Below are positions 3,232 through 64,000 of a stretch of DNA of 64,000 nucleotides, piece after piece. This stretch comes from Eubacteriales bacterium (GTDB taxonomy: Bacteria; Bacillota; Clostridia; Oscillospirales; SIG627): contig JAZNRO010000049.1 in assembly GCA_045590715.1 (NCBI GenBank), forward strand, positions 1,853 to 65,852, read 5' to 3'. Position numbers and translations under genes: made by a program. Numbering within the stretch: the stretch's first letter is position 1; each line of letters starts with the position of its first letter. A model generated the notes under the pieces. That model did no database searches. It saw only the letters and a program-made list of their open reading frames with translations, and had not been told where the DNA came from.

Positions 3232-3456
3232 ACGGATCTTCCTTTCTGGTTTCAAAAAACAAAGGGGATTATATCACAAAAAAAGACAAAATGCAAGAAA
3301 AGACTACAACAATCTTTCTGCCTTTTTCCCCTTTTTTCTTCCTTTTACTACGGCAAAAACAAAGCCTTTTTTCGCTTTCCGCTTTTTATTTTACAAAAAT
3401 ACATCAAATTATCAAATTTTGGACTAAAAAATGCAAGGTTTTTGTCAAGAAAACTA

Positions 3457-3534: not shown

Positions 3535-4911
3535 ATGAACTATCGCATCGAACACGACTCTATGGGCGAAGTGAAGGTTCCCGCAGACAAATATTGGGCT
3601 GCGCAGACCGAAAGAAGCCACGAGAACTTCAAGATCGGCGTTGGCATCGAAACCATGCCCAGAGAAATCACCCGCGCTTTTGGTATTCTGAAAAAAGCGG
3701 CCGCTATGGCAAACCACAATCTGAAGCCGGAAAAGATGACCGCAGAGAAACTGGAAGCCATCAAAACCGCTTGTGATGAAGTGATCTCCGGTTCTTTGAA
3801 CGATCATTTCCCCTTGGTTGTATGGCAGACCGGCAGTGGCACCCAGTCCAACATGAATGCAAACGAAGTCATCGCAAACCGCGGAAACGAGATCGCCGGC
3901 AAAAAGCTTCTCCACCCCAACGATGATATCAATAGGTCCCAGAGCACCAAGGACACCTTCCCCACTGCCATGCACATTGCCGCAGTAGAGATCGTGGAAA
4001 ACAAGCTCTTCCCCGCAATGGACCTTCTCATTTCCACTCTCATCCGTCTGGAAAAAGAAAACGAAGGCATCGTAAAAAGCGGCAGAACCCATCTGCAGGA
4101 CGCTACCCCCGTTACCTTCTCCCAGGAGATCTCCGGCTGGAGAAGCAGTCTGGAAAAGGATAAGGAACTTCTGAAAGCTTCCCTTACCCATCTCCACGAA
4201 CTGGCACTGGGCGGCACCGCCGTTGGTACGGGACTGAACACCCCCAAGGGATTTGATAAAGAAGTAGCAAAGGCTGTTTCCGAAATTACCGGAAAAGAAT
4301 TTGTTACCGCTCCCAATAAATTCCACGCTCTCACTTCCAAAGACGAACTGGTATTTGCTCACGGTGCTATGAAAGCACTGGCAGCAGACCTGATGAAGAT
4401 CGCAAACGATATCCGCTGGCTGGCCAGTGGCCCCACACTTGCTATCGGTGAGATCTTCATTCCCGAAAACGAGCCCGGTTCTTCCATTATGCCCGGTAAG
4501 GTAAACCCCACCCAGTGCGAAGCAGTTACCATGGTAGCCGTACAGGTTATGGGTAACGACGTAGCCGTTGGTATGGCAGCAAGCCAGGGCAACTTTGAAC
4601 TGAACGTGTTTATGCCCGTGTGCATTTACAACTTCCTCCAGTCTGCCCGTCTTCTGGCTGAGTCTATCGTTTCCTTTAATGATAACTGCGTTACCGGAAT
4701 CCGCGCAAACCGCGAAAAGATGCATGCAAACCTCCACAACTCTCTGATGCTGGTAACGGCTCTCAATCCTTACATCGGATATGAAAACGCCGCAAAGACC
4801 GCAAAGAAAGCCTTCAAGGAAAACATTTCCCTGAAAGAAGCTTGCGTGGCCCTGGGCTTTTTGACCGCAGAAAAGTTTGACCAAGTTTTCCATCCTGAAC
4901 AGATGGTTTAA
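3535..4911 (+). CDS. fumC: Class II fumarate hydratase
   Basis: 458 aa. GSSIMPGKVNPTQCE lyase signature, WQTGSGTQSNMNANEVIANR, N-terminus MNYRIEHDSMGEVKVPADKYWAAQTERS. RBS AAGGAGG. Confidence 0.9.
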   Translation: MNYRIEHDSMGEVKVPADKYWAAQTERSHENFKIGVGIETMPREITRAFGILKKAAAMANHNLKPEKMTAEKLEAIKTACDEVISGSLNDHFPLVVWQTGSGTQSNMNANEVIANRGNEIAGKKLLHPNDDINRSQSTKDTFPTAMHIAAVEIVENKLFPAMDLLISTLIRLEKENEGIVKSGRTHLQDATPVTFSQEISGWRSSLEKDKELLKASLTHLHELALGGTAVGTGLNTPKGFDKEVAKAVSEITGKEFVTAPNKFHALTSKDELVFAHGAMKALAADLMKIANDIRWLASGPTLAIGEIFIPENEPGSSIMPGKVNPTQCEAVTMVAVQVMGNDVAVGMAASQGNFELNVFMPVCIYNFLQSARLLAESIVSFNDNCVTGIRANREKMHANLHNSLMLVTALNPYIGYENAAKTAKKAFKENISLKEACVALGFLTAEKFDQVFHPEQMV

Positions 4912-6117: not shown

Positions 6118-8109
6118 ATGCAAAGAATCGGCGTTTTCGTTTGCTGGTGTGGTAGTAATATCGCCGCAACCGTTGATGTAAAAGCCGTTGCTGAAGCTCT
6201 TTCCAAAGAGCCCGGCGTGGTTTATTACGAAGATTATCAGTACATGTGCTCCGAGGAAGAACAGAACAAGATCAAGAATGCCATCCGTGATTACAAGCTC
6301 ACCGGTGCCGTTGTCTGCTCCTGCTCTCCCCGTATGCACGAAAACACCTTCCGCAAGGCCGCAGCTGCCGCAGGAGTAAACTCCTTTATGGTAGAGATCG
6401 CCAATATCCGTGAGCAGTGCTCCTGGATCCACAAGGATAAACAGAGTGCTACCGAAAAAGCGATCATTCTCGGTAGAGCCGCCATTGCAAAGGTACATTT
6501 GAACACTCCCCTTACCGCCGGAGAAAGCCCGGTCGTAAAGAGAGCATTGGTTATCGGTGGCGGTATCGCCGGTATCCAGACTGCACTTGACATTGCAGAT
6601 GCAGGATTTGAAGTAGACATCGTGGAAAAGAAGCCTACCGTCGGCGGTAAGATGAGCCAGATCGACAAGACCTTTCCCACCCTGGACTGTGCTGCTTGTA
6701 TCCTGACTCCCAAAATGGTAGACGTAGCCCAGAACGAAAAGATCCGCATCTTCGCCTTCAGTGAAGTGGATTCCGTAAAGGGCTTTGTAGGTAACTTTAA
6801 CGTATCCATCCGCCGCAAGGCAAGATACGTTGACGAAGTGAAGTGTACGGGCTGCGGTCTTTGTACCGAAAAGTGCCCCCAGAAAAAGGTTCCCAACGAT
6901 TTCAACTTAGGTCTGGATCAGAAGAGAGCCATTTACATTCCCTTCGCTCAGGCAGTTCCGAAGGTTGCAACCATTGACCCCGACTACTGTACCATGCTGA
7001 AGACCGGCAAGTGCGGTGTCTGCGCCAAGGTTTGTACCGCCGGTGCTATTGACTACAAGCAACAGGATACTTTCGTAGAAGAACAGTACGGTGCTATCGT
7101 AGTTGCAACCGGCTTTAACCCCATTGAACTAAAGAAATACGACGAGTTTGCTTACTCCCAGTCTCCCGACGTTATCACCTCCCTGGAATTTGAACGCATT
7201 ACCAATGCGGCAGGTCCCACCGGCGGCGTACTCCTTCGTCCTTCCGACGGAGAGCATCCTCACAAGATCGTATTCGTTCAGTGTGTCGGTAGCCGTGAAG
7301 ACGGTAACGGTTGCGGTAAGACTTACTGCTCCAAGATCTGCTGTATGTATACCGCAAAGCACGCCATGCTGACCCGCGAAAAATATCCGGATACCGAAGT
7401 TTACGTATTCTACATTGACGTTCGTACTCCCGGTAAGAACTTTGATGAGTTCTACCGCAGAGCCGTAGAAGAATACGGCGTTCACTACATCAAGGGTATG
7501 GTTGGTAAGGTTTCTCCCGAAAACGGAAAACTTATGGTGCGCGCTTCCGATCTGATCGAAGGCAAGCAGATGACCATTGACGCTGACCTTGTGGTTCTGG
7601 CAGCTGCCATTGAGCCCGACAAATCCGCCCGTCCTTTGGCTACCATGCTCACCGCTTCCATGGATACCAACGACTTCTTTACCGAAGCACATCCCAAGCT
7701 CCGTCCTGTAGAAAGCCCCACCGCCGGCATCTTCCTTTCCGGTTGCTGCCAGGGACCCAAGGACATTCCCGAAACCGTTGCCCAGGCTTCCGCTTGTGCC
7801 GCAAAGGTTATCGGACTTCTGGCAAAAGATACCCTTACCTGCAACGCTTGTGTTGCTCATTCTAACGAAATGCTCTGTAACGGATGTTCCTCCTGTGAAA
7901 AGGTATGTCCCTACGGCGCTATCACCTACGAAGAAAAAGAATTCCGTATGCCCGATCGCACCACCAAGGTTCGCAGAGTGGCAAGCGTGAACCCGGCTGT
8001 ATGTCAGGGATGCGGTGCTTGTACTGTTGCTTGTCCCAGCGGTGCTATGGACCTTCACGGATTCTCTAACAGACAAATCATGGCGGAGGTAGATGCAATA
8101 TGCAAGTAG
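6118..8109 (+). CDS. hdrA: Heterodisulfide reductase subunit A-like FAD/Fe-S protein
   Basis: 663 aa. VIGGGIAGIQTALDIADAG FAD fold, hallmark KTFPTLDCAACILTPKM, several CxxCxxCxxxCP ferredoxin motifs. Confidence 0.85.
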   Translation: MQRIGVFVCWCGSNIAATVDVKAVAEALSKEPGVVYYEDYQYMCSEEEQNKIKNAIRDYKLTGAVVCSCSPRMHENTFRKAAAAAGVNSFMVEIANIREQCSWIHKDKQSATEKAIILGRAAIAKVHLNTPLTAGESPVVKRALVIGGGIAGIQTALDIADAGFEVDIVEKKPTVGGKMSQIDKTFPTLDCAACILTPKMVDVAQNEKIRIFAFSEVDSVKGFVGNFNVSIRRKARYVDEVKCTGCGLCTEKCPQKKVPNDFNLGLDQKRAIYIPFAQAVPKVATIDPDYCTMLKTGKCGVCAKVCTAGAIDYKQQDTFVEEQYGAIVVATGFNPIELKKYDEFAYSQSPDVITSLEFERITNAAGPTGGVLLRPSDGEHPHKIVFVQCVGSREDGNGCGKTYCSKICCMYTAKHAMLTREKYPDTEVYVFYIDVRTPGKNFDEFYRRAVEEYGVHYIKGMVGKVSPENGKLMVRASDLIEGKQMTIDADLVVLAAAIEPDKSARPLATMLTASMDTNDFFTEAHPKLRPVESPTAGIFLSGCCQGPKDIPETVAQASACAAKVIGLLAKDTLTCNACVAHSNEMLCNGCSSCEKVCPYGAITYEEKEFRMPDRTTKVRRVASVNPAVCQGCGACTVACPSGAMDLHGFSNRQIMAEVDAICK

Positions 8110-39084: not shown

Positions 39085-39459
39085 CTAATACCTCCTTTTG
39101 CTGACTGGTACAAGGCTGACACTAAACGGCTTGTATCTGCCTTTCGACTTACTATCCAGCTCTACGTCGTAGTCGCTGGCGTAGTATTCAGTGCTGACTG
39201 TGGTTTGCAGTCTCACGTCAAACCACGTAACGGTAAAAAACGCCTTGTCTAACAGCGCTGTAAGTTCGGCCATTTCTTCCTGGTCGGTATATCCCACCTC
39301 GATCTGAATCTTCGGGAAAATACCGATCAGCGTAGCCCTTACGTCGCCAGACATATTACGCTCGCTATCTTTCCACAGTTTAGCGCGTCCGATCTTATAG
39401 CTTTTAATGTGGGGAATGGTAACCCCGTCAATTTGTACTAAATCGCCTGTATAAATCAC
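39085..39459 (-). CDS. Short distal-tail (Dit-like) protein
   Basis: 124 aa. 4-nt overlap with the tape-measure stop. Call is by position only. Confidence 0.4.
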   Translation of the reverse strand: MIYTGDLVQIDGVTIPHIKSYKIGRAKLWKDSERNMSGDVRATLIGIFPKIQIEVGYTDQEEMAELTALLDKAFFTVTWFDVRLQTTVSTEYYASDYDVELDSKSKGRYKPFSVSLVPVSKRRY

Positions 39460-42320
39460 GCGAATACCACCTCCCCGTTAGTTTCAAAGGCTTTCTCTCT
39501 GCCGTACTCAATAAGTTTATTAAAGATATCTTCCTCGCCGAGTTTCACGGTGAGTTTGATATTTCCACCGCCACCGCCGATCTTGTCGCCGATCTTGGAC
39601 GCTAGCTGGTCGATCCAGCCTGTATTACGTTCCAGAGGCATTACCGCCTCTTTACCAGCTTCACCGATCATAGCGTAAGTCGGTCTATCTACGATACCGC
39701 CCTGTGCCAGTTTCGGTACCTCCAGCAGAGTAAGTTTGCTGATCTCTACGCCGGGGATCTTGTTAATAATACCAATCGCAAAGTTAATGGCTTTGAGAAA
39801 GCCGTTAATTTTACCGATCACTTTTTCAAGTATCCCGTTAACCGCAGATTTCACCGCGCCAGACACAGCGTCACCGACTTTTTTACCGATATCTTTGAAA
39901 AAATTACCGATATCAGCAAACACGTCTTTAATGCCTTGACACAAATTACTAAACCACTTTTTAATCTTGGTACCAGTAGACTCGTATTTGTGCGGATCCA
40001 TACCGTCTTTGATACTGGCGGGAAGGTCTGTCATAAACGTCTTTTGCGCGTCGTCGCTCATTTCACTCATGCTCTTGGAAATAAGCTCACGCGCCTCGTC
40101 TGCTGATAATTCGCCTTTTTCAAAAGCGTCCACTACTGATTTTTTGAAATCGTCGTAGTTTCCGCTTTCCTTGGCAAGCGCTAGCTGGTTTTCGTAAGAG
40201 GCGATAGTCTCGGCTTTTTTGGCGGCGTTAAATTCCTCGGTTGACTTTTTCAAGTCTTTTTGTTTCTGCTCGTTATCCAAATAGGCCTTATAGACCTCTT
40301 TTTGTGCGTCGGTCATATCGGCATAATCGAGCGTGCCGTTCTGTACTTGCGTATAAAGTTCCTCTCCTGTAACGCCCGCGGCTTTTTCTGCTTCTTCAAG
40401 CCGTTTCATAGAGGCCTCGGCCGCGTCTACTGCGCTGATATAATTGTTTTCTGCCTCTTTTGCTCTCTCTTTGGCCGCTGTCAAGTTTTCTTGCGCCTCT
40501 TGAACAGACATAATGGCGGGTTCCTCTAAAAGAATAGCCGCGACGAAACCAGCAACGAGGGCCGTTACACCTACGATAGCCGAAACAAGAGTGTGAACAC
40601 CAGCGGTCGCAAGGCCAACGGCAATGGCGATGGCACCGCCGATAATAAGTATCGTGTTTTGTAACGTAGGCCCGTTGGCGATAAAGTCTTTTACGCCTAC
40701 CACCATCAAGGCTATACCGCCTACAACGGCGGCAATACCAGCGACTATGGGCGCTAGAGTCGTATTAAATGGCTTGATCGCAAAATACAAGCCTACCGCG
40801 GCGGCAGTTACACCGCCGATCATAAGCGCGAAGTTCTTCCAGTCCAGTCCGTTGATCCAAGCGTCAAAGACGCCGTATGCAAAAGCGACAATACCCGCGG
40901 TCGCCGCAATAGCACCGCCAAGCGAAGTAAATTTGTCCCCCGTTGTTAGAGCGTCAAGCACGTCGGAAACCCCAAACAAGTCGCCCATCATTTGGAAAAA
41001 ACCAAGATTACCAGGGTTTAAGAAAAAGCCGAGCACTGTTTTTGAGATTTTCCATAACGCGAGAGCGGTACCTACAGAGGCTACCAAAGTTAGAAACTCT
41101 TTCATTTTGCCGTACAATTCGTCTACTTTGCCCGATACGGAAGAAGTGGCAGAGTCCCACCCGCTGGTGTTCCATTCGGATACTTCCAAATTACTGATCG
41201 TGGAGTCGTCGTCAGATCCGCTACTCTTGTTTTCGGTTAGCACGTTCATCTCGTCAAACCCAGCCAAGCTTTTAAGTGTCTTGCTCAAGCCTTTAGCGGA
41301 TTTATTAGCGTTTTTATTTGAATTATCAAGATTTTTTACAGAGTCGTTGACACTATCAACGGCTTTGTTTGCTGAATTTGTGTCGATTATGTTTTTTCCA
41401 CCAAACAACTTGCTCACAGAGTTTACCGCCCAGATACACGCTTTTACGAACGCGGTAACGTATGGTACCGCGCTGTTTATCGCCTTTACGATATTTTGGA
41501 AAAAACCAGCTATATTAGAACGTCCTATCGCGTTAATGATATCAGCGATACCTCTTGTTAAGGCTGTTTTGACGTTCGTAATAGACGTTCCAATACCACC
41601 AGTAGCGCCGCGCGCTTGCTCCTCAAAACTAGCAAATCCCGCCACGCCCTCGGTGTTGAGTCTGTGTATGGTCTGCATAAACTCATTCATAGAGACGTTG
41701 CCGTTTCGCAGTTCCTCGCCGAGCTGTGACGAATTGGCGTAGCCCATAGCGACAGCGACTTGTTTCAGCTGTGCTGGCATAGCCGTCATAGCGGTACGCC
41801 ACTCCATCATATCGGGCTTGCCTTTTGCGTAAGCCTGTGATAATTGCTCCAGCGCCGACGTTTGAATTTGCTGACTTGCACCACCCGCCAAAATGGCGTT
41901 ATTAAGGGCCAGAAACATATCAGTACTAGCCTTTACGTTTCCGTTTACACTTGTAAACTTTTGTACCGCGCCTACGGCAGAGTCCAGAGTAGTGGGTAGC
42001 CCAGTCAGTTTGTCACTCAAACGTTTCATTGACTCGTCGGCGTCGTCGGTTGATACGCCCAAGTTACCCATAACCTTTGAAAAATTATTTATGGTGTCTG
42101 CTCTCTGTATAGCGCTGTCTAAATTGCTACTTATAGCCCGTATGCCAGAGCTTACGGTTTTCATAATAAGGTTGCTTTTTAGAAAGCTCTTTGTCATACT
42201 GGTCGAGAATTTGTTCGTGTTTTTAGTAACGTCGTTTAGCCTACCTTGCACCGCGCTTATTTCTTTTTTCAGCTGGGTAGTGTTTGCCGTTATCAACACT
42301 TGCAATTCATCAATAGTCAT
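39456..42320 (-). CDS. Tail tape measure protein
   Basis: 954 aa. Helical N-terminus, central Gly/Ala-rich multi-TM-like block, long coiled-coil C-half. Follows the G/T chaperone genes. Confidence 0.9.
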   Translation of the reverse strand: MTIDELQVLITANTTQLKKEISAVQGRLNDVTKNTNKFSTSMTKSFLKSNLIMKTVSSGIRAISSNLDSAIQRADTINNFSKVMGNLGVSTDDADESMKRLSDKLTGLPTTLDSAVGAVQKFTSVNGNVKASTDMFLALNNAILAGGASQQIQTSALEQLSQAYAKGKPDMMEWRTAMTAMPAQLKQVAVAMGYANSSQLGEELRNGNVSMNEFMQTIHRLNTEGVAGFASFEEQARGATGGIGTSITNVKTALTRGIADIINAIGRSNIAGFFQNIVKAINSAVPYVTAFVKACIWAVNSVSKLFGGKNIIDTNSANKAVDSVNDSVKNLDNSNKNANKSAKGLSKTLKSLAGFDEMNVLTENKSSGSDDDSTISNLEVSEWNTSGWDSATSSVSGKVDELYGKMKEFLTLVASVGTALALWKISKTVLGFFLNPGNLGFFQMMGDLFGVSDVLDALTTGDKFTSLGGAIAATAGIVAFAYGVFDAWINGLDWKNFALMIGGVTAAAVGLYFAIKPFNTTLAPIVAGIAAVVGGIALMVVGVKDFIANGPTLQNTILIIGGAIAIAVGLATAGVHTLVSAIVGVTALVAGFVAAILLEEPAIMSVQEAQENLTAAKERAKEAENNYISAVDAAEASMKRLEEAEKAAGVTGEELYTQVQNGTLDYADMTDAQKEVYKAYLDNEQKQKDLKKSTEEFNAAKKAETIASYENQLALAKESGNYDDFKKSVVDAFEKGELSADEARELISKSMSEMSDDAQKTFMTDLPASIKDGMDPHKYESTGTKIKKWFSNLCQGIKDVFADIGNFFKDIGKKVGDAVSGAVKSAVNGILEKVIGKINGFLKAINFAIGIINKIPGVEISKLTLLEVPKLAQGGIVDRPTYAMIGEAGKEAVMPLERNTGWIDQLASKIGDKIGGGGGNIKLTVKLGEEDIFNKLIEYGREKAFETNGEVVFA

Positions 42321-60575: not shown

Positions 60576-60604
60576 ATTATAGTAAACAAATTCGCAACTG
60601 TCAA
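60576..60604 (-). promoter_or_regulatory. Early (lytic) promoter, perfect sigma-A consensus
   Basis: Minus strand: TTGACA, 17 nt, TATAAT, read directly. Confidence 0.75.
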
Positions 60605-60644
60605 TAGTTTTTTCAATTTTTTTTTGTACTTTTTTTAAAAACCA

Positions 60645-60673
60645 TTGATTTTAACCATTTTTAACGCTACAAT
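60645..60673 (+). promoter_or_regulatory. Repressor (lysogenic) promoter
   Basis: TTGATT, 17 nt, TACAAT; 58 nt upstream of the repressor ATG. Confidence 0.65.
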
Positions 60674-60730
60674 GTGTGTTACATAGTAAACACTATGGCG
60701 ACTGCGAAAGGAGGAATATGGAGGAATATT

Positions 60731-61090
60731 ATGAATATGCAGGTGTTTGCCGAACGGCTGAAAGAAACGCGCAAAGAAAAAATGATCTCGTCCAAAGAGC
60801 TTGGAGAGGCGGTAGGTATCCACAAGGCTACTATACACCGATACGAAAAAGCGGATTTTAAGGGGATAAAGGAGTCGTTGTTAAACGCCATAGCAGATTA
60901 CCTCAACGTAAACCCCGACTATTTAATCGGTGCAACGGATAACAAGCACACGGTTAAAGAGGCCGAGGATTTACTGGAAAATATTACAGACGGAGAAAAA
61001 ATGCTCCTTGAATTATTTAGGAAAGTTCCTGTTGAGAGTCAGCAGATGGTGCTTGATATGATACGGATCGTTCTAAAACAGCACCAATAA
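60731..61090 (+). CDS. XRE-family phage repressor (CI-like; no S24 peptidase domain)
   Basis: 119 aa from ATG 60731 (RBS GGAGG). ...FAERLKETRKEKMISSKELGEAVGIHKATIHRYEK HTH. Divergent from the early operon. Confidence 0.8.
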   Translation: MNMQVFAERLKETRKEKMISSKELGEAVGIHKATIHRYEKADFKGIKESLLNAIADYLNVNPDYLIGATDNKHTVKEAEDLLENITDGEKMLLELFRKVPVESQQMVLDMIRIVLKQHQ

Positions 61091-61172
61091 CAAGCACGGC
61101 GGTAAGCAAAGCCTGTTCTGGGTTTTCATTTTCGCGAATAAGGGTTAACAATTCTCTTTCGTTGCTTGTCAT
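61017..61172 (-). CDS. Small ORF (51 aa) convergent with, and overlapping, the repressor 3' end
   Basis: Strong RBS AAGGAG 8 nt before ATG 61172. MTSNERELLTLIRENENPEQALLTAVLVIGAVLE.... The last 74 nt are antisense to the repressor CDS. Confidence 0.4.
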   Translation of the reverse strand: MTSNERELLTLIRENENPEQALLTAVLVIGAVLERSVSYQAPSADSQQELS

Positions 61173-61381
61173 TTCGTTTTACTCCTTTTGAAAAAAATAT
61201 GTAGAACACGTGTTTGTGAAATCTTAATATTCACGGGCACTAATTCAAATGGTATTTGTTGGGGTAATTGTAAAACATTGCCAACTGTTTTGGCAATACG
61301 CAAATTCGGTCAATTTATGACCGAATAAGAAAAAAGCCTATTTAGAAGGTGATAAAAATTTGTCAATTAAGGTACTAAAAA

Positions 61382-61801
61382 ATGGTAAAAGACTACTTAA
61401 ACTCCTTGAAAAACAAGGGGAATTTCACGGCTAAAGATATAGAAAAAATGAGCGGTATTCCTGTGGCGACCGTTCGCAAAGTTTTATCGGGTGAGACCGA
61501 CGATCCCCGCTTTGATACGGTTGTAAAGCTCGTTTCTGCTATGGGAGGATCGCTAGACCACCTCGCAGAGAAGAAAGGTAAGAAGGAAATTGAGTCAAAT
61601 TCGATCGTAACCCTAAAGGAAATATACGACGAACGGATCAAGGATATAAAGGATCATACGAGCTCGTTGAGCAGAGACAAGCAAATCTTGTCTACTGTTG
61701 CGGGTGTGCTGGTTGCTATTCTTTTGGCTTTGCTTATTTTCGATATATCAATAAGCCCCCAAGGCTGGGTTCGTTATAAAAATAATACTGACACAAACTG
61801 A
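61382..61801 (+). CDS. XRE-type HTH protein with C-terminal transmembrane anchor
   Basis: 139 aa. ...FTAKDIEKMSGIPVATVRKVLSGE HTH. TM ILSTVAGVLVAILLALLIFDI near the C-terminus. Confidence 0.65.
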   Translation: MVKDYLNSLKNKGNFTAKDIEKMSGIPVATVRKVLSGETDDPRFDTVVKLVSAMGGSLDHLAEKKGKKEIESNSIVTLKEIYDERIKDIKDHTSSLSRDKQILSTVAGVLVAILLALLIFDISISPQGWVRYKNNTDTN

Positions 61802-61856
61802 CATAGACGGTCACACAATAACAAAACGTGTCAAAATACAAAAAGGAGGTTTATAT

Positions 61857-63155
61857 ATGCCTAAATGTACTCTGTGTGGTAAATCTGGATTTTTTTTAAA
61901 AACTAATGTTGAGGGTATGTGTCCCGATTGTCAAACAAAAACTCTACAAGAATTAAGAGAGGCACTAACGCCAGAACAACAAGATATTTTTAAACTTAAA
62001 AATGAAATACAGCGTTTGAATGATGAGGTGTCTAGCCTAAATAACCGAATATCTACGCAAACAGCCTCGCTGAATGAAACAGAAACGGAGTTAGAAGAAA
62101 AGAAACAGCAACTAATAGAAACAAACGAAACTATTTTATTGCAGTCCTTTGGCCTTTACGAGCCTAAATATAGTTTTACTAGTTCGGAACAATACAAACA
62201 GCGTTTAGACAAAATACGAGCAGAGCAAAAGGAAAGCATAAAAAACAAGACTGCCGTTACTGGTCTTACAAACTGGACTGTCAACGGTAGTGCGTCGCAA
62301 GGGCGAACAATGGTAAACAATATGCAAAAGCTTTTATTAAGAGCTTTTAACAGCGAGTGCGACGAAATCATAGAAAAGGTTAAATATAGCAACTATGACT
62401 CTTCTGTAAAACGCATAAACTCCTCTATAAACGCTATTTCAAAGCTTGGTAAAATGATGGGTATTTCTATTTCTGGGGCGTATGGTAGATTAAAACTGGC
62501 AGAGTTAGATCTGGCTTTTGAATATCAGCAAAAAAAGCAACAGGAGAAAGAAGAACAAAAAGAATTAAAAGCGCAAATGCGCGAAGAGGCAAAACTGCAA
62601 AAAGAATTAGAAATGGAACGCAGAATTGTCGAAAAGCAACAAACCCACTACTATAACGCGCTTGAAAAAGTAAACAAGCAATTACTCGAACAGCCGGACA
62701 ATATTGAGCTATTAGAGAGGAAGAGAACGCTTGAAGAAAACCTATCACAAACCGAGCAAGCACTAAAAAATCTCGATTATCGAGAGGCAAATAAAAAAGC
62801 GGGATATGTATATATAATCTCTAATATTGGCGCTTTTGGTGAGAACGTCTACAAAATTGGCATGACACGCCGTCTTGATCCACAAGAAAGAATTGACGAA
62901 TTGGGCGATGCCTCGGTTCCGTTTAAGTTTGACGTACACGCTATGATTTTTTCAGAGGACGCTCCAGCGCTTGAAAACGCGTTGCACCACGCTTTCGAGA
63001 ATAAAAGATTAAATAAAGTGAACGCACGCAAAGAGTTTTTTAACGTTACACTTGACGAGATAAAAGAAGTTATAAAGGCTAATTACGATAAAACAGCAGA
63101 ATTTATAGAAATTGCAGAGGCAGAGCAATATAGAATTTCTTTAAAATTAAACTGA
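61857..63155 (+). CDS. Zn-ribbon / coiled-coil / DUF4041 / T5orf172 (GIY-YIG-like) nuclease-domain protein
   Basis: 432 aa. CTLCGK..CPDC ribbon, heptad-rich aa 30-95, FGLYEPKYSF...WTVNGSASQG core, C-terminal GYVYIISN..NVYKIGMTRRLDPQERIDELG...EFF motif. RBS AAAGGAGG. Confidence 0.75.
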   Translation: MPKCTLCGKSGFFLKTNVEGMCPDCQTKTLQELREALTPEQQDIFKLKNEIQRLNDEVSSLNNRISTQTASLNETETELEEKKQQLIETNETILLQSFGLYEPKYSFTSSEQYKQRLDKIRAEQKESIKNKTAVTGLTNWTVNGSASQGRTMVNNMQKLLLRAFNSECDEIIEKVKYSNYDSSVKRINSSINAISKLGKMMGISISGAYGRLKLAELDLAFEYQQKKQQEKEEQKELKAQMREEAKLQKELEMERRIVEKQQTHYYNALEKVNKQLLEQPDNIELLERKRTLEENLSQTEQALKNLDYREANKKAGYVYIISNIGAFGENVYKIGMTRRLDPQERIDELGDASVPFKFDVHAMIFSEDAPALENALHHAFENKRLNKVNARKEFFNVTLDEIKEVIKANYDKTAEFIEIAEAEQYRISLKLN

Positions 63156-63189
63156 CAGGTTTTAATAAAAGAGGAAAGGGCGTGTTAAA

Positions 63190-64000
63190 ATGTTTACCTA
63201 TCACGGTGTAACATTTACAGCAAACGAAATATTAAAGTATTCCAGAAAATCACGCTCCGACGATCCGCTACTTACGGTCGAGGAAGTCCTGGAAAAGCAC
63301 GAAAAAATATTGAACGAATGGTGCGAGCGTAATCTGGGTGAATTGATCCCAGAATGTAACTCCTTCCAAGAGATCGGATCGGGTGAAACGATAGATGCGA
63401 GACCCGCCTTTCAAAATATACTCCGTTTGATCGAAAACTCAAAGTACAGGGCCATTTTTACGGTGGACGTGCAAAGACTTTCCCGCGGCGATTTGGAAGA
63501 CGCTGGTAGGATAATGAAACTCCTGCGCTATACAAACACCTTTGTTATTACTCCAGACATGGTATTTGATCTTTCCGACGAATACGACAGAGACCGTTTC
63601 AAGAGGGAATTAGACCGAGGAAACGATTACCTAGAATATTATAAGAAGATAAACTGGCGCGGAAGGTTGGAAAGCGTAAGGGCAGGTTATTTCATCGGAT
63701 CGGTTGCGCCTTACGGCTACGATAAAGGCTGGCTAAAAGAAGGCAGAAAAAAACGCCCCACACTCAAAATAAATGAATGTGAGGCAGAGGCGGTACGCCT
63801 TATATTTCATCTGTACGTAAATGAAGATATGGGTATGACAAATATAGCGCACCAATTAAACGGGCTGGGATATAAAACCCGTAAGGGTGCGCTTTGGTCA
63901 ACGGCGTCAATTAAAGATATTCTTGCCAATGTGCATTATATCGGTAAAATAAAATGGAATTGGAGAAAGACCGTTAACATAGTGGCTGACGGTGAAATTT
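63190..64000 (+). CDS. Large serine recombinase (phage integrase), truncated by the window end
   Basis: Read by hand from ATG 63190: ...YSRKSRSDD (catalytic Ser region)...IFTVDVQRLSRGD..., then the recombinase domain ...GYFIGSVAPYGYD. No stop before 64000. Confidence 0.85.
   Translation, partial: MFTYHGVTFTANEILKYSRKSRSDDPLLTVEEVLEKHEKILNEWCERNLGELIPECNSFQEIGSGETIDARPAFQNILRLIENSKYRAIFTVDVQRLSRGDLEDAGRIMKLLRYTNTFVITPDMVFDLSDEYDRDRFKRELDRGNDYLEYYKKINWRGRLESVRAGYFIGSVAPYGYDKGWLKEGRKKRPTLKINECEAEAVRLIFHLYVNEDMGMTNIAHQLNGLGYKTRKGALWSTASIKDILANVHYIGKIKWNWRKTVNIVADGEI

Follow-up and report, generated by a model that had tools for sequence, protein, structure and literature searches.

The 64,000-nucleotide stretch of DNA analysed here (the window) carries, at 61857..63155 on the + strand, a gene for a 432-aa protein that is probably a stand-alone SNIPE defence nuclease, acquired as cargo just upstream of the integrase gene in a siphovirus-type prophage whose host would be a Clostridia-like gut bacterium. 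This reading draws on the family membership of the gene, the order of the domains that it encodes, the conservation of its catalytic residues, its status as cargo and its independence from the neighbouring upstream gene, which encodes an HTH protein with a transmembrane (TM) segment. The initial annotation of the window had proposed the gene pair in the lysogeny module as a candidate anti-phage system of the prophage, and for the 432-aa protein that proposal is supported by the results described below. SNIPE nucleases cut phage DNA during injection (PMC13190303), and the E. coli SNIPE, formerly PD-lambda-1, has been described by Vassallo et al. 2022 (PMC9519451) and by Saxton et al., Nature 2026 (PMC13190303); it is the membrane-bound DUF4041 nuclease blocking genome entry to which the initial annotation had correctly pointed.

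By its sequence, the 432-aa protein clearly belongs to the SNIPE (PD-lambda-1) nuclease family. The PADLOC PD-Lambda-1 model PDLC03976 matches it with an E-value of 2.2e-156 (519.5 bits; aa 32-431 against model positions 72-472 of 491), and matches were also obtained to a second PADLOC model, PDLC03977 (E 1.7e-145), and to PHROG 1847 (E 2.7e-152). Over aa 9-431 the protein is 43% identical (E 7e-98) to the PD-lambda-1 protein of E. coli phage PhiR26_1, which carries all nine of the nine residues named in the SNIPE paper (PMC13190303). The Pfam family DUF4041 (PF13250), labelled 'SNIPE' in the precomputed Pfam annotation, matches aa 158-213 over the whole of its 56-position model (E 2.9e-22, 78.7 bits against a cut-off of 27), and the C-terminal domain matches T5orf172 at aa 316-407 (E 5e-20) and MUG113 (E 6.3e-21). 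Profile-HMM searches for these three domains and a search with a defence-system finder had been proposed in the initial annotation; the E-values for DUF4041, T5orf172 and MUG113 lie far beyond chance, and the PADLOC match to PD-Lambda-1 answers the second proposal in the same sense. A sequence search of the PDB with the protein gave no match, and a Foldseek comparison of the full model with the PDB returned coiled-coil noise, bar one 66-column match, of uncertain position on the protein, to Rip1 of phage HK446 (probability 0.95). Relatives of the protein were found in metagenome-assembled genomes of Acutalibacteraceae, Oscillospiraceae and Lachnospiraceae, and the type of host given above was deduced from these relatives. 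A reading of the gene as a homing endonuclease was ruled out on context.

The left flank of the lysogeny operon is an XRE/CI-like prophage repressor at 60674..61090 on the + strand (probable start ATG at 60731), which matches Pfam HTH_3 (E 1.9e-10) and the repressor families PHROG 8 and PHROG 4. It is followed on the same strand by a gene for a tail-anchored XRE-type HTH protein of 139 aa (the HTH-TM gene, 61382..61801), by the SNIPE gene and by the N-terminal part of a large serine recombinase, the integrase (63190..64000), which runs past the window end, forms the right flank of the cargo slot and matches the Pfam families Resolvase (E 1.4e-8) and Recombinase (E 1.3e-14). The initial annotation had placed the two genes as a pair between an XRE repressor and a serine integrase on one strand, and this placement is confirmed, with gaps of 55 nt between the HTH-TM and SNIPE genes and 34 nt between the SNIPE gene and the integrase. 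A Shine-Dalgarno sequence, AAGGAGG, can be read at 61843..61849 on the + strand, 7 nt before the SNIPE ATG. A consensus scan detected a promoter-like site upstream of the repressor (60645-60673) and neither a promoter nor a terminator on the + strand between 61100 and 63190; the position and strand of the SNIPE gene suggest that it would be expressed in the lysogen. Control of SNIPE by LexA was considered and rejected, given that a Cheo-box-like palindrome found upstream in two related loci (L081 and L039) is also found in a sister prophage that has no SNIPE gene (L092), does not occur at the corresponding position in the window, and has window-wide matches at a frequency below chance.

The AlphaFold model of the 432-aa protein (mean pLDDT 80) has an elongated layout like that of E. 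coli SNIPE, with a zinc knuckle, a helix (aa 23-96), a globular core, further helices (aa 207-315) and a C-terminal alpha/beta domain, in that order. On the + strand, the corresponding features begin with an N-terminal C4 zinc ribbon (aa 4-25, 61866..61931) that is defined by the invariant cysteines C4, C7, C22 and C25 and is followed by the long N-terminal helix or coiled coil (aa 23-96, 61923..62144), modelled as helices 23-36, 39-89 and 91-96, in which the mean pLDDT of 10-residue blocks is 84-94 over aa 41-80 and falls towards either end. Next are the DUF4041 (PF13250) globular core (aa ~98-213, 62148..62495), with pLDDT above 90, two long charged linker helices (aa 207-278 and 283-315, 62475..62801), the counterpart of what is called the 'downstream alpha helix' in E. 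coli SNIPE, and the GIY-YIG-type (T5orf172/MUG113) nuclease domain (62802..63152), assigned from Pfam and from its 69% identity to the E. coli domain. All of the parts that the initial annotation had listed, namely a CxxC ribbon, coiled coils, DUF4041 and the T5orf172/MUG113 module, are present where it had placed them. The nuclease motifs G316-Y-V-Y, Y332-K-I-G and R338-R339, as well as E373 (codon 62973-62975), which aligns with the catalytic E414 of E. coli SNIPE, are invariant in a 60-sequence alignment of relatives, and the 432-aa protein is predicted to be an active nuclease.

We infer where the protein would be located and which phages it would target: by analogy with E. coli SNIPE, the lysogen would be protected against superinfecting tailed phages. 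The N-terminal module would position the protein at the DNA entry site, the DUF4041 core would bind DNA and the tape measure protein of the incoming phage, and the GIY-YIG/T5orf172 nuclease, with E373 as its catalytic glutamate, would cut the phage genome in the midst of its injection. Both DNA binding and contact with the tape measure protein have been described for the DUF4041 region of E. coli SNIPE (PMC13190303). The prophage in the window encodes a tape measure protein of its own at 39456-42320 on the minus strand.

Sequence comparisons mark the SNIPE gene as horizontally acquired cargo in a variable slot just upstream of the integrase gene. Its GC3 is 0.339, against 0.456-0.489 in the flanking genes, and this low value points to an inserted gene. 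The sister prophage L092 carries the repressor, the HTH-TM gene and the integrase gene (76% identical to that of the window at the DNA level) and lacks SNIPE. In a blastn comparison of the window with L092, homology ends at 61710 and restarts at 63182. Between these positions the window has the SNIPE gene, preceded by the last part of the HTH-TM gene, whose 3' end has diverged; in L092, the HTH-TM gene is separated from the integrase by no more than an A-rich spacer of 232 nt.

The placement of related genes suggests further that SNIPE works as a single gene, since in unrelated prophages its relatives are the only gene between the repressor and the integrase. No membrane partner accompanies the zinc-ribbon SNIPE genes that are most abundant, which directly follow the repressor of a prophage and precede an integrase; the zinc-ribbon relatives P0026 and P0092, which lie directly between these two genes, are indexed in 133 and 131 contig-collection blocks, respectively. 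The same placement was observed in loci L003, L004, L009, L012 and L016 and in two known temperate phages, Javan633 of Streptococcus and CDMH1 of C. difficile. No conserved neighbour gene was found beside SNIPE in the loci compared, which are the best 80 of at least 443 in the genome collection; homologous proteins number more than 8000, and metagenome contigs are over-represented in the samples compared.

As the initial annotation had stated, the 432-aa protein has no TM segment (the best 19-residue Kyte-Doolittle window scores 0.73), and it has neither an amphipathic N-terminal helix nor a PH domain. An N-terminal TM helix is present in ~66% of SNIPE homologues and is essential in the E. coli protein, and the 34% of 474 homologues that are TM-less have an N-terminal PH, DUF4428 or DivIVA-like module instead, DUF4428 being a small zinc-binding domain (PMC13190303). 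The window protein, by its sequence, falls in this TM-less third of the family, and since such homologues have already been reported, the missing TM segment is not new in itself. The four cysteines of its ribbon are invariant in 56 of 56 aligned relatives, the loop between the knuckles is conserved as G-K-x-G-[LIM]-[FL]-L-K-x-N, and the ribbon as a whole can be defined by the motif M-A-x-C-x-x-C-G-K-x-G-x-F-L-K-x-N-x-x-G-x-C-x-x-C, which is not described in the SNIPE paper (PMC13190303). Pfam gives only generic matches to the ribbon below threshold, with DZR_2 in 22 of 41 relatives and DUF4428 (PF14471) weakly in 6 of the 41 (best E 0.0075; one scored 16.4 bits against a cut-off of 27.8); the Pfam scan of the window protein itself gave no match to DUF4428. 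The supplementary tables of the SNIPE paper (PMC13190303) contain nothing on DUF4428 or zinc ribbons. The zinc-ribbon class of SNIPE is large and is common in gut Clostridia.

The upstream neighbour might be thought to supply the missing anchor. The initial annotation had described it as an HTH protein with a single C-terminal TM segment, and both features are borne out by a match to Pfam HTH_3 (PF01381; E 1.1e-6, 29.1 bits against a cut-off of 23) and by a clear hydropathy peak (best 19-residue Kyte-Doolittle window 2.9, at aa 102-120). Its AlphaFold model (pLDDT 69) consists of a five-helix N-terminal domain with the HTH (aa 2-63), a linker and a long helix (aa 70-137) that contains the TM segment at about aa 102-124. 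The TM segment is conserved across 54 homologues of the protein, which also has a conserved C-terminal GW-x-RY motif. The two genes could thus be read as a system in which, at least in this lineage, the tail-anchored HTH-TM protein tethers the TM-less zinc-ribbon SNIPE and replaces its TM segment. They are adjacent on the same strand and 55 nt apart, the same pair recurs in the close relatives L081-L083, membrane anchoring is required by E. coli SNIPE (PMC13190303), and the fusion of TM segments ahead of the same zinc ribbon in the relatives P0065 and P0086 implies that the ribbon can adjoin the membrane. We nevertheless regard such a two-gene system as very improbable on comparative grounds. 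In L092 the HTH-TM gene directly precedes the integrase and there is no SNIPE, other relatives of the HTH-TM gene occur in different contexts (L084-L089 and L090) and in chromosomal settings with unrelated neighbours, and SNIPE is present in none of 59 further HTH-family loci, 34 of which have at least 1.4 kb of downstream sequence. Conversely, a relative of the HTH gene was detected in only two of 80 SNIPE loci (the best 80 of at least 443), and in both of these it is a TM-less paralogue, located ahead of SNIPE proteins that are 82% (L039, best segment) and 65% (L001) identical to that of the window. Only two relatives of the HTH gene were found in IMG/VR. To these observations can be added the lack of a membrane-protein neighbour beside the most abundant zinc-ribbon SNIPEs and the gap in GC3 between the SNIPE and HTH-TM genes, which indicates that the two have different histories. 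The co-occurrence of HTH-TM and SNIPE genes appears to be confined to one narrow prophage lineage, of which the HTH-TM gene is a conserved backbone gene that SNIPE does not need. The two-gene architecture suggested in the initial annotation, together with the co-occurrence across prophages by which it was to be judged, is therefore not upheld.

The same comparisons bear on the proposal that the pair resembles a toxin-antitoxin system, with the upstream HTH protein neutralising or repressing a self-toxic, TM-less nuclease. Toxin-antitoxin loci commonly have an XRE-type HTH gene immediately ahead of the gene for a toxic effector, and E. coli SNIPE from which the TM segment has been deleted is toxic and cuts host DNA (PMC13190303). 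The proposal nonetheless fails on co-occurrence just as the tethering proposal does; moreover, a membrane-tethered antitoxin would be unusual, and where other prophages have an HTH gene ahead of SNIPE, it is the repressor of the phage itself. We consider it extremely improbable and have ruled it out on context.

If SNIPE is a stand-alone nuclease, as we favour, the toxicity of the TM-deleted E. coli protein is a point against this view, in that a TM-less protein would have to be kept harmless or brought to the site of injection by some other means. The conserved lysine-flanked hydrophobic loop of the ribbon is likely to be the adaptor by which the protein attaches to the membrane or to a protein in it. 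Genes for Zn_Ribbon_1+TM2 proteins were found beside TM-less SNIPEs in 7-8 loci and beside none of 15 TM-bearing ones; such a protein was rejected as the SNIPE partner, the numbers being too small and the window containing no such gene. A different possibility, to which we assign a low probability, is that zinc-ribbon SNIPEs act off the membrane in an auto-inhibited form, the ribbon or the DUF4041 core being released by cytoplasmic DNA ends or by a phage protein such as the tape measure protein. This would fit with the 432-aa protein having no TM segment, amphipathic N-terminal helix or PH domain, with the large size of the zinc-ribbon class and its usual lack of a membrane-protein neighbour, and with the auto-inhibited state inferred for the membrane-bound SNIPE (PMC13190303). 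It is harder to reconcile with the conserved K-x-G-[LIM]-[FL]-L-K loop, which would resemble a membrane- or protein-docking surface, with the hints of membrane proximity given by the TM-fused ribbon relatives and the Zn_Ribbon_1+TM2 neighbours in several loci, and with the expectation of the SNIPE authors that all classes localise to the membrane (PMC13190303).

A broader and similarly unlikely proposal is that the zinc-ribbon SNIPEs represent a mechanistically distinct branch of the family, in which the ribbon with its lysine-flanked loop takes the place of the TM helix and either docks on a separate membrane protein or gates a soluble nuclease that is fired by the incoming tape measure protein. 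The docking partner might then be a component of the host DNA-entry channel, a Zn_Ribbon_1+TM2 neighbour like those of several loci or, in this lineage, the HTH-TM protein. If this proposal were true, self and non-self would be told apart by location with a trans-acting adaptor in the role of an integral anchor.

The finding of a SNIPE nuclease in the window does not overturn current knowledge. It does indicate that SNIPE, which has been characterised only in E. coli, is a common single-gene cargo in the lysogeny modules of gut Clostridia prophages, where it mostly takes the zinc-ribbon form and has no membrane anchor. This form offers a natural test case for the idea, central to the family, that position at the membrane is what spares the host DNA. 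For annotation purposes, the 432-aa gene should be designated a SNIPE/PD-lambda-1 defence nuclease and its HTH-TM neighbour kept separate from it.

Compared with E. coli SNIPE, the window protein has the coiled coil, DUF4041 core, long helices and C-terminal GIY-YIG/T5orf172 nuclease in the same order, with 43% identity overall, 69% in the nuclease domain and 40% in the DUF4041 region, retains the catalytic glutamate and is likewise encoded by a single phage- or prophage-borne gene. It differs in having a C4 zinc ribbon in place of the N-terminal single-pass TM helix (MTQTPLLLAIIFLLVVLVLYIAAI), in two positions that contact the tape measure protein (E223 corresponds to V184 here and W257 to D218) and in its host, which is a Gram-positive anaerobe instead of E. 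coli. With the TM-less SNIPE homologues of the PH, DUF4428 and DivIVA-like classes it shares the lack of a predicted TM segment and a small globular N-terminal module before the coiled coil. As to the DUF4428 class, for which no function of the module is given in PMC13190303, the matches to DUF4428 are weak and below threshold in 6 of 41 relatives, and the window protein gives none.

Among phage genomes, the homologues in Javan633, CDMH1 (gp42) and Lactobacillus phage PLE3 are 39-51% identical to the 432-aa protein and have no annotation beyond hypothetical, DUF4041 or 'putative regulatory protein'. Those of Javan633 and CDMH1 share its position in the lysogeny module, between repressor and integrase on their strand. 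All three differ in that tblastn leaves the zinc ribbon unaligned, with matches that begin at aa 27-87. Superinfection exclusion that blocks DNA entry is also known for Ltp of the S. thermophilus phage TP-J34 and Sie2009 of lactococcal phages, whose genes lie close to those for the repressor and integrase of the lysogeny module. These are small membrane or lipoproteins that are not known to have a nuclease and act at the step of DNA injection. The SNIPE gene of the window resembles them in its location and in the step at which its product would act, and differs from them in that SNIPE degrades the incoming DNA.

The right half of the window is a siphovirus-type prophage, with genes for the terminase, portal, a 954-aa tape measure protein, tail proteins and endolysin on the minus strand at about 31-52 kb, and the locus considered here is therefore its lysogeny module. 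On the plus strand, the gene of an XRE/CI-type repressor (60674-61090, probable start 60731) precedes a gene for a 139-aa protein with an HTH_3 domain and a transmembrane (TM) segment (HTH-TM, 61382-61801), a gene for a 432-aa protein with DUF4041 and T5orf172/MUG113 domains (61857-63155, with a strong ribosome-binding site, AAGGAGG) and a large serine recombinase gene (Resolvase and Recombinase domains) that extends from 63190 to the window end. Our reading of ORFs and domains agrees with the initial annotation on the positions of the pair between repressor and serine integrase and on the gaps of 55 nt within the pair and 34 nt to the integrase. In a consensus scan, the only promoter-like site for these plus-strand genes, at 60645-60673, faces the repressor gene and is weaker than its minus-strand counterpart, and no terminator was found between the genes on the plus strand, a pattern that would, as far as sequence can indicate, allow the genes to be co-transcribed in the lysogen. 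On the minus strand, a perfect TTGACA-17-TATAAT (60604-60576) is directed at the early lytic genes, and the prophage switch consists of back-to-back promoter-like sites within 60576-60673. A 51-aa ORF (61017-61172, minus strand) also lies in antisense to where the repressor gene ends, with a strong ribosome-binding site (AAAGGAG) and a promoter-like site at 61296-61267 (minus strand); it is kept in the sister prophages L081 and L092 at about 70-80% identity by eye, and seems to be a genuine small gene belonging to the switch.

The ribbon, DUF4041 and nuclease domains previously recognized in the 432-aa protein are evident from its cysteines (C4, C7, C22 and C25) and from Pfam matches to DUF4041 (aa 158-213, E 2.9e-22) and T5orf172/MUG113 (aa 316-407, E about 1e-20). 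The suggestion that it is a candidate defence protein was also right: it matches two PADLOC PD-Lambda-1 models (E 2.2e-156 and 1.7e-145) over nearly their whole length, with the first 70 positions uncovered, as well as PHROG 1847 (E 2.7e-152). PD-lambda-1, a single-gene defence system discovered by functional screen (PMC9519451), was later characterised and renamed SNIPE (bioRxiv 10.1101/2025.11.03.685801; Nature 2026, PMC13190303), and the link drawn in the initial annotation between DUF4041-nuclease proteins and blocked phage genome entry in E. coli matches the latter report. Among 41 phage-genome records found with tblastn is that of E. coli phage PhiR26_1. Its 500-aa gene product, annotated as PD-lambda-1, carries each of the nine residues discussed in the SNIPE paper at the expected position and so shares the residue numbering of the characterised protein. 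Residues 9-431 of the window protein align with 45-472 of the PhiR26_1 protein at 43% identity (E 7e-98); the nuclease domain is 69% identical, the DUF4041 region 40% and the N-terminal coil 26%. The catalytic E414 aligns with E373 of the window protein (codon 62973-62975), and the positions of the E. coli phage-specificity mutations differ (E223 is V184, W257 is D218), which fits the variable surface reported for SNIPE (PMC13190303). Judged by sequence, the family membership, domain order and catalytic residues of the window protein can be regarded as established.

The initial annotation had further proposed that the HTH-TM and SNIPE genes form a two-gene system, and this part was not supported. 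When the 139-aa protein was compared by phmmer with all ORFs of 80 SNIPE loci (the best 80 of at least 443; 72 of the 80 with at least 600 nt of upstream sequence), relatives adjoined SNIPE in L001 and L039 only, where the SNIPE proteins are 65% and 82% identical, respectively, to that of the window (best segment) and the HTH relatives both align without a TM. The most widespread zinc-ribbon SNIPE relatives are placed straight between repressor and integrase: P0026 is flanked by an HTH repressor and a serine recombinase, P0092 by an HTH_3+Peptidase_S24 repressor and a tyrosine integrase, and placement is similar in L003, L004, L009, L012 and L016, and likewise in phages Javan633 and CDMH1; P0037 has a nucleotidyltransferase gene and a PhdYeFM/YoeB pair beside it and an integrase nearby. 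From the HTH side, tblastn detected SNIPE in none of 59 further HTH-family loci of diverse context (metagenomes and IMG/VR; 34 with at least 1.4 kb downstream), the homologues P0156 and P0173 have chromosomal contexts with unrelated genes downstream, and P0136, 65% identical to the HTH-TM protein, lies in sister prophage L092 in the order repressor, 51-aa antisense ORF, HTH-TM gene and serine integrase, with no SNIPE.

Homology between the window and L092 (blastn) ends at 61710 and restarts at 63182, leaving unmatched the entire SNIPE gene and, ahead of it, the last part of the HTH-TM gene, which has diverged; in L092, a 232-nt A-rich spacer (4385-4615) is all that separates the HTH-TM gene from the integrase. 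GC3 is 0.339 for SNIPE versus 0.489 for the repressor, 0.479 for HTH-TM and 0.456 for the integrase genes. The slot that separates the HTH(-TM) gene from the serine integrase (window 61802-63189) varies across this prophage lineage: SNIPE occupies it in the window, L081, L039 and L001, it is empty A-rich sequence in L092 and L122, and in L132 (4432-5031) it encodes an unrelated 199-aa protein that begins MGLFDLFKK. Because of the co-occurrence tests, the L092 comparison, the GC3 gap and the variable slot contents, we conclude that SNIPE is a cargo gene inserted in a variable slot, independent of its HTH-TM neighbour, which belongs to the prophage backbone. Downstream of the HTH gene, sister prophages carry a Cheo/LexA-box-like palindrome, CGAACAAATGTTCG, and a small hairpin, with SNIPE present or absent (L081 about 7960-7990; L039 about 3395-3420; L092 4385-4450, there as GAACATCTGTTC), which suggests SOS control of the gene downstream in these prophages; the window has no such box at the matching place, its nearest weak match being at 61203-61216.

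The HTH-TM protein itself (Pfam HTH_3, E 1.1e-6, above threshold) has the single C-terminal TM attributed to it (hydropathy 2.9 at aa 102-120). Its AlphaFold model (pLDDT 69) begins with an XRE-type domain of five helices (aa 2-63), which a flexible linker joins to a long helix (aa 70-137) containing the TM, and the protein is therefore tail-anchored, with the HTH domain presumably facing the cytoplasm. Its 54 database homologues conserve the order HTH, coil, TM and C-terminal GW-x-RY motif. Chromosomal homologues are each preceded by a divergent gene for a small two-TM protein (minus strand; L084 3399-3719, L090 3581-3820, L108 3571-3828), and these mutually homologous proteins may be the true conserved partner of the family. 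As a separate observation, genes for Zn_Ribbon_1 proteins with a TM (mostly a TM2 domain) adjoin TM-less SNIPE homologues in 7-8 loci (L002 7378-7740; L010 3141-3563; L003 7337-8410; L005 7320-8291; L006, L017, L050, L061) and none of 15 SNIPE homologues with their own TM; they are better candidates for a SNIPE partner than the HTH-TM gene, in numbers too small for a claim.

The window SNIPE protein was correctly described as lacking a TM (maximum hydropathy 0.73). About 100 of its 120 closest relatives begin M-A-x-C-x-x-C-G-K-x-G-[LIM]-[FL]-L-K-[VT]-N-x-x-G-[LM]-C-x-x-C and are all TM-less. Other N-terminal classes among the 80 related loci are an MG[LF]xDxFK start, a TM helix, and another type of zinc ribbon with a TM after it. 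In these loci, dominated by Clostridia of gut and rumen, the MG[LF]xD[IVL]FK start is the commonest N-terminus, above TM and zinc ribbon; we take it to resemble the membrane-binding amphipathic helix that opens PspA/Vipp1-type proteins. A few proteins have multi-TM extensions ahead of the same ribbon (P0065, P0086); in these and P0087, an added stretch of 115-130 residues, containing two to four TM segments, lies immediately before the ribbon, and may be a real fusion or reflect a start codon called too far upstream of an internal M-A-x-C start. The close homologue P0016 (554 aa) has an internal tandem duplication of ~120 residues, with the SKLGTTMDIAITKKYL...DYREAN region present twice, which may be an assembly artefact of its 1.9-kb contig. 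No Pfam family matches the ribbon above threshold, and the matches to DZR_2, seen in 22 of 41 relatives, and to DUF4428, seen in 6 of them (best E 0.0075), are weak, so that assignment to the DUF4428 class of the SNIPE paper is plausible but unproven; in that paper, 34% of 474 SNIPE homologues lack a TM and have other N-terminal modules (PH, DUF4428, DivIVA-like) (PMC13190303). The absence of a TM might be taken to mean that the window protein works as a soluble, auto-inhibited nuclease. E. coli SNIPE is toxic without its TM (PMC13190303), a toxicity that a TM-less member would have to avoid in some other way. The conserved lysine-flanked hydrophobic loop, the TM-extension fusions and the occasional Zn_Ribbon_1+TM2 neighbours are hints of a membrane-proximal ribbon; we consider a soluble nuclease rather improbable.

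The best-supported reading is that the window SNIPE gene would act alone as the lysogen's superinfection defence by the mechanism known for SNIPE, which is membrane-anchored, uses its DUF4041 domain both to bind DNA and to contact the tape measure protein, and cuts phage DNA during injection with a GIY-YIG nuclease of catalytic residue E414 (PMC13190303); the zinc ribbon would then be a localisation or adaptor module. That it is active, where it localises, what it targets and that the lysogen expresses it are inferences. No solved structure is related to the 432-aa protein by sequence, and a fold search with its model gave nothing useful; the sole high-probability Foldseek match in the PDB for model m4bf648fac12d was 9oox_A (0.95, 66 columns, rmsd 1.9), which is Rip1 of phage HK446 in complex with phage small terminase. 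The window gene adds a member to an already characterised family, and its AlphaFold model, built from 60 relatives (mean pLDDT 80.4), runs from a zinc knuckle through the long helix of aa 23-96, a globular core modelled with confidence (about aa 98-205) and two further long helices (207-278 and 283-315) to a C-terminal alpha/beta domain, a predicted arrangement that matches the elongated plan described for E. coli SNIPE.
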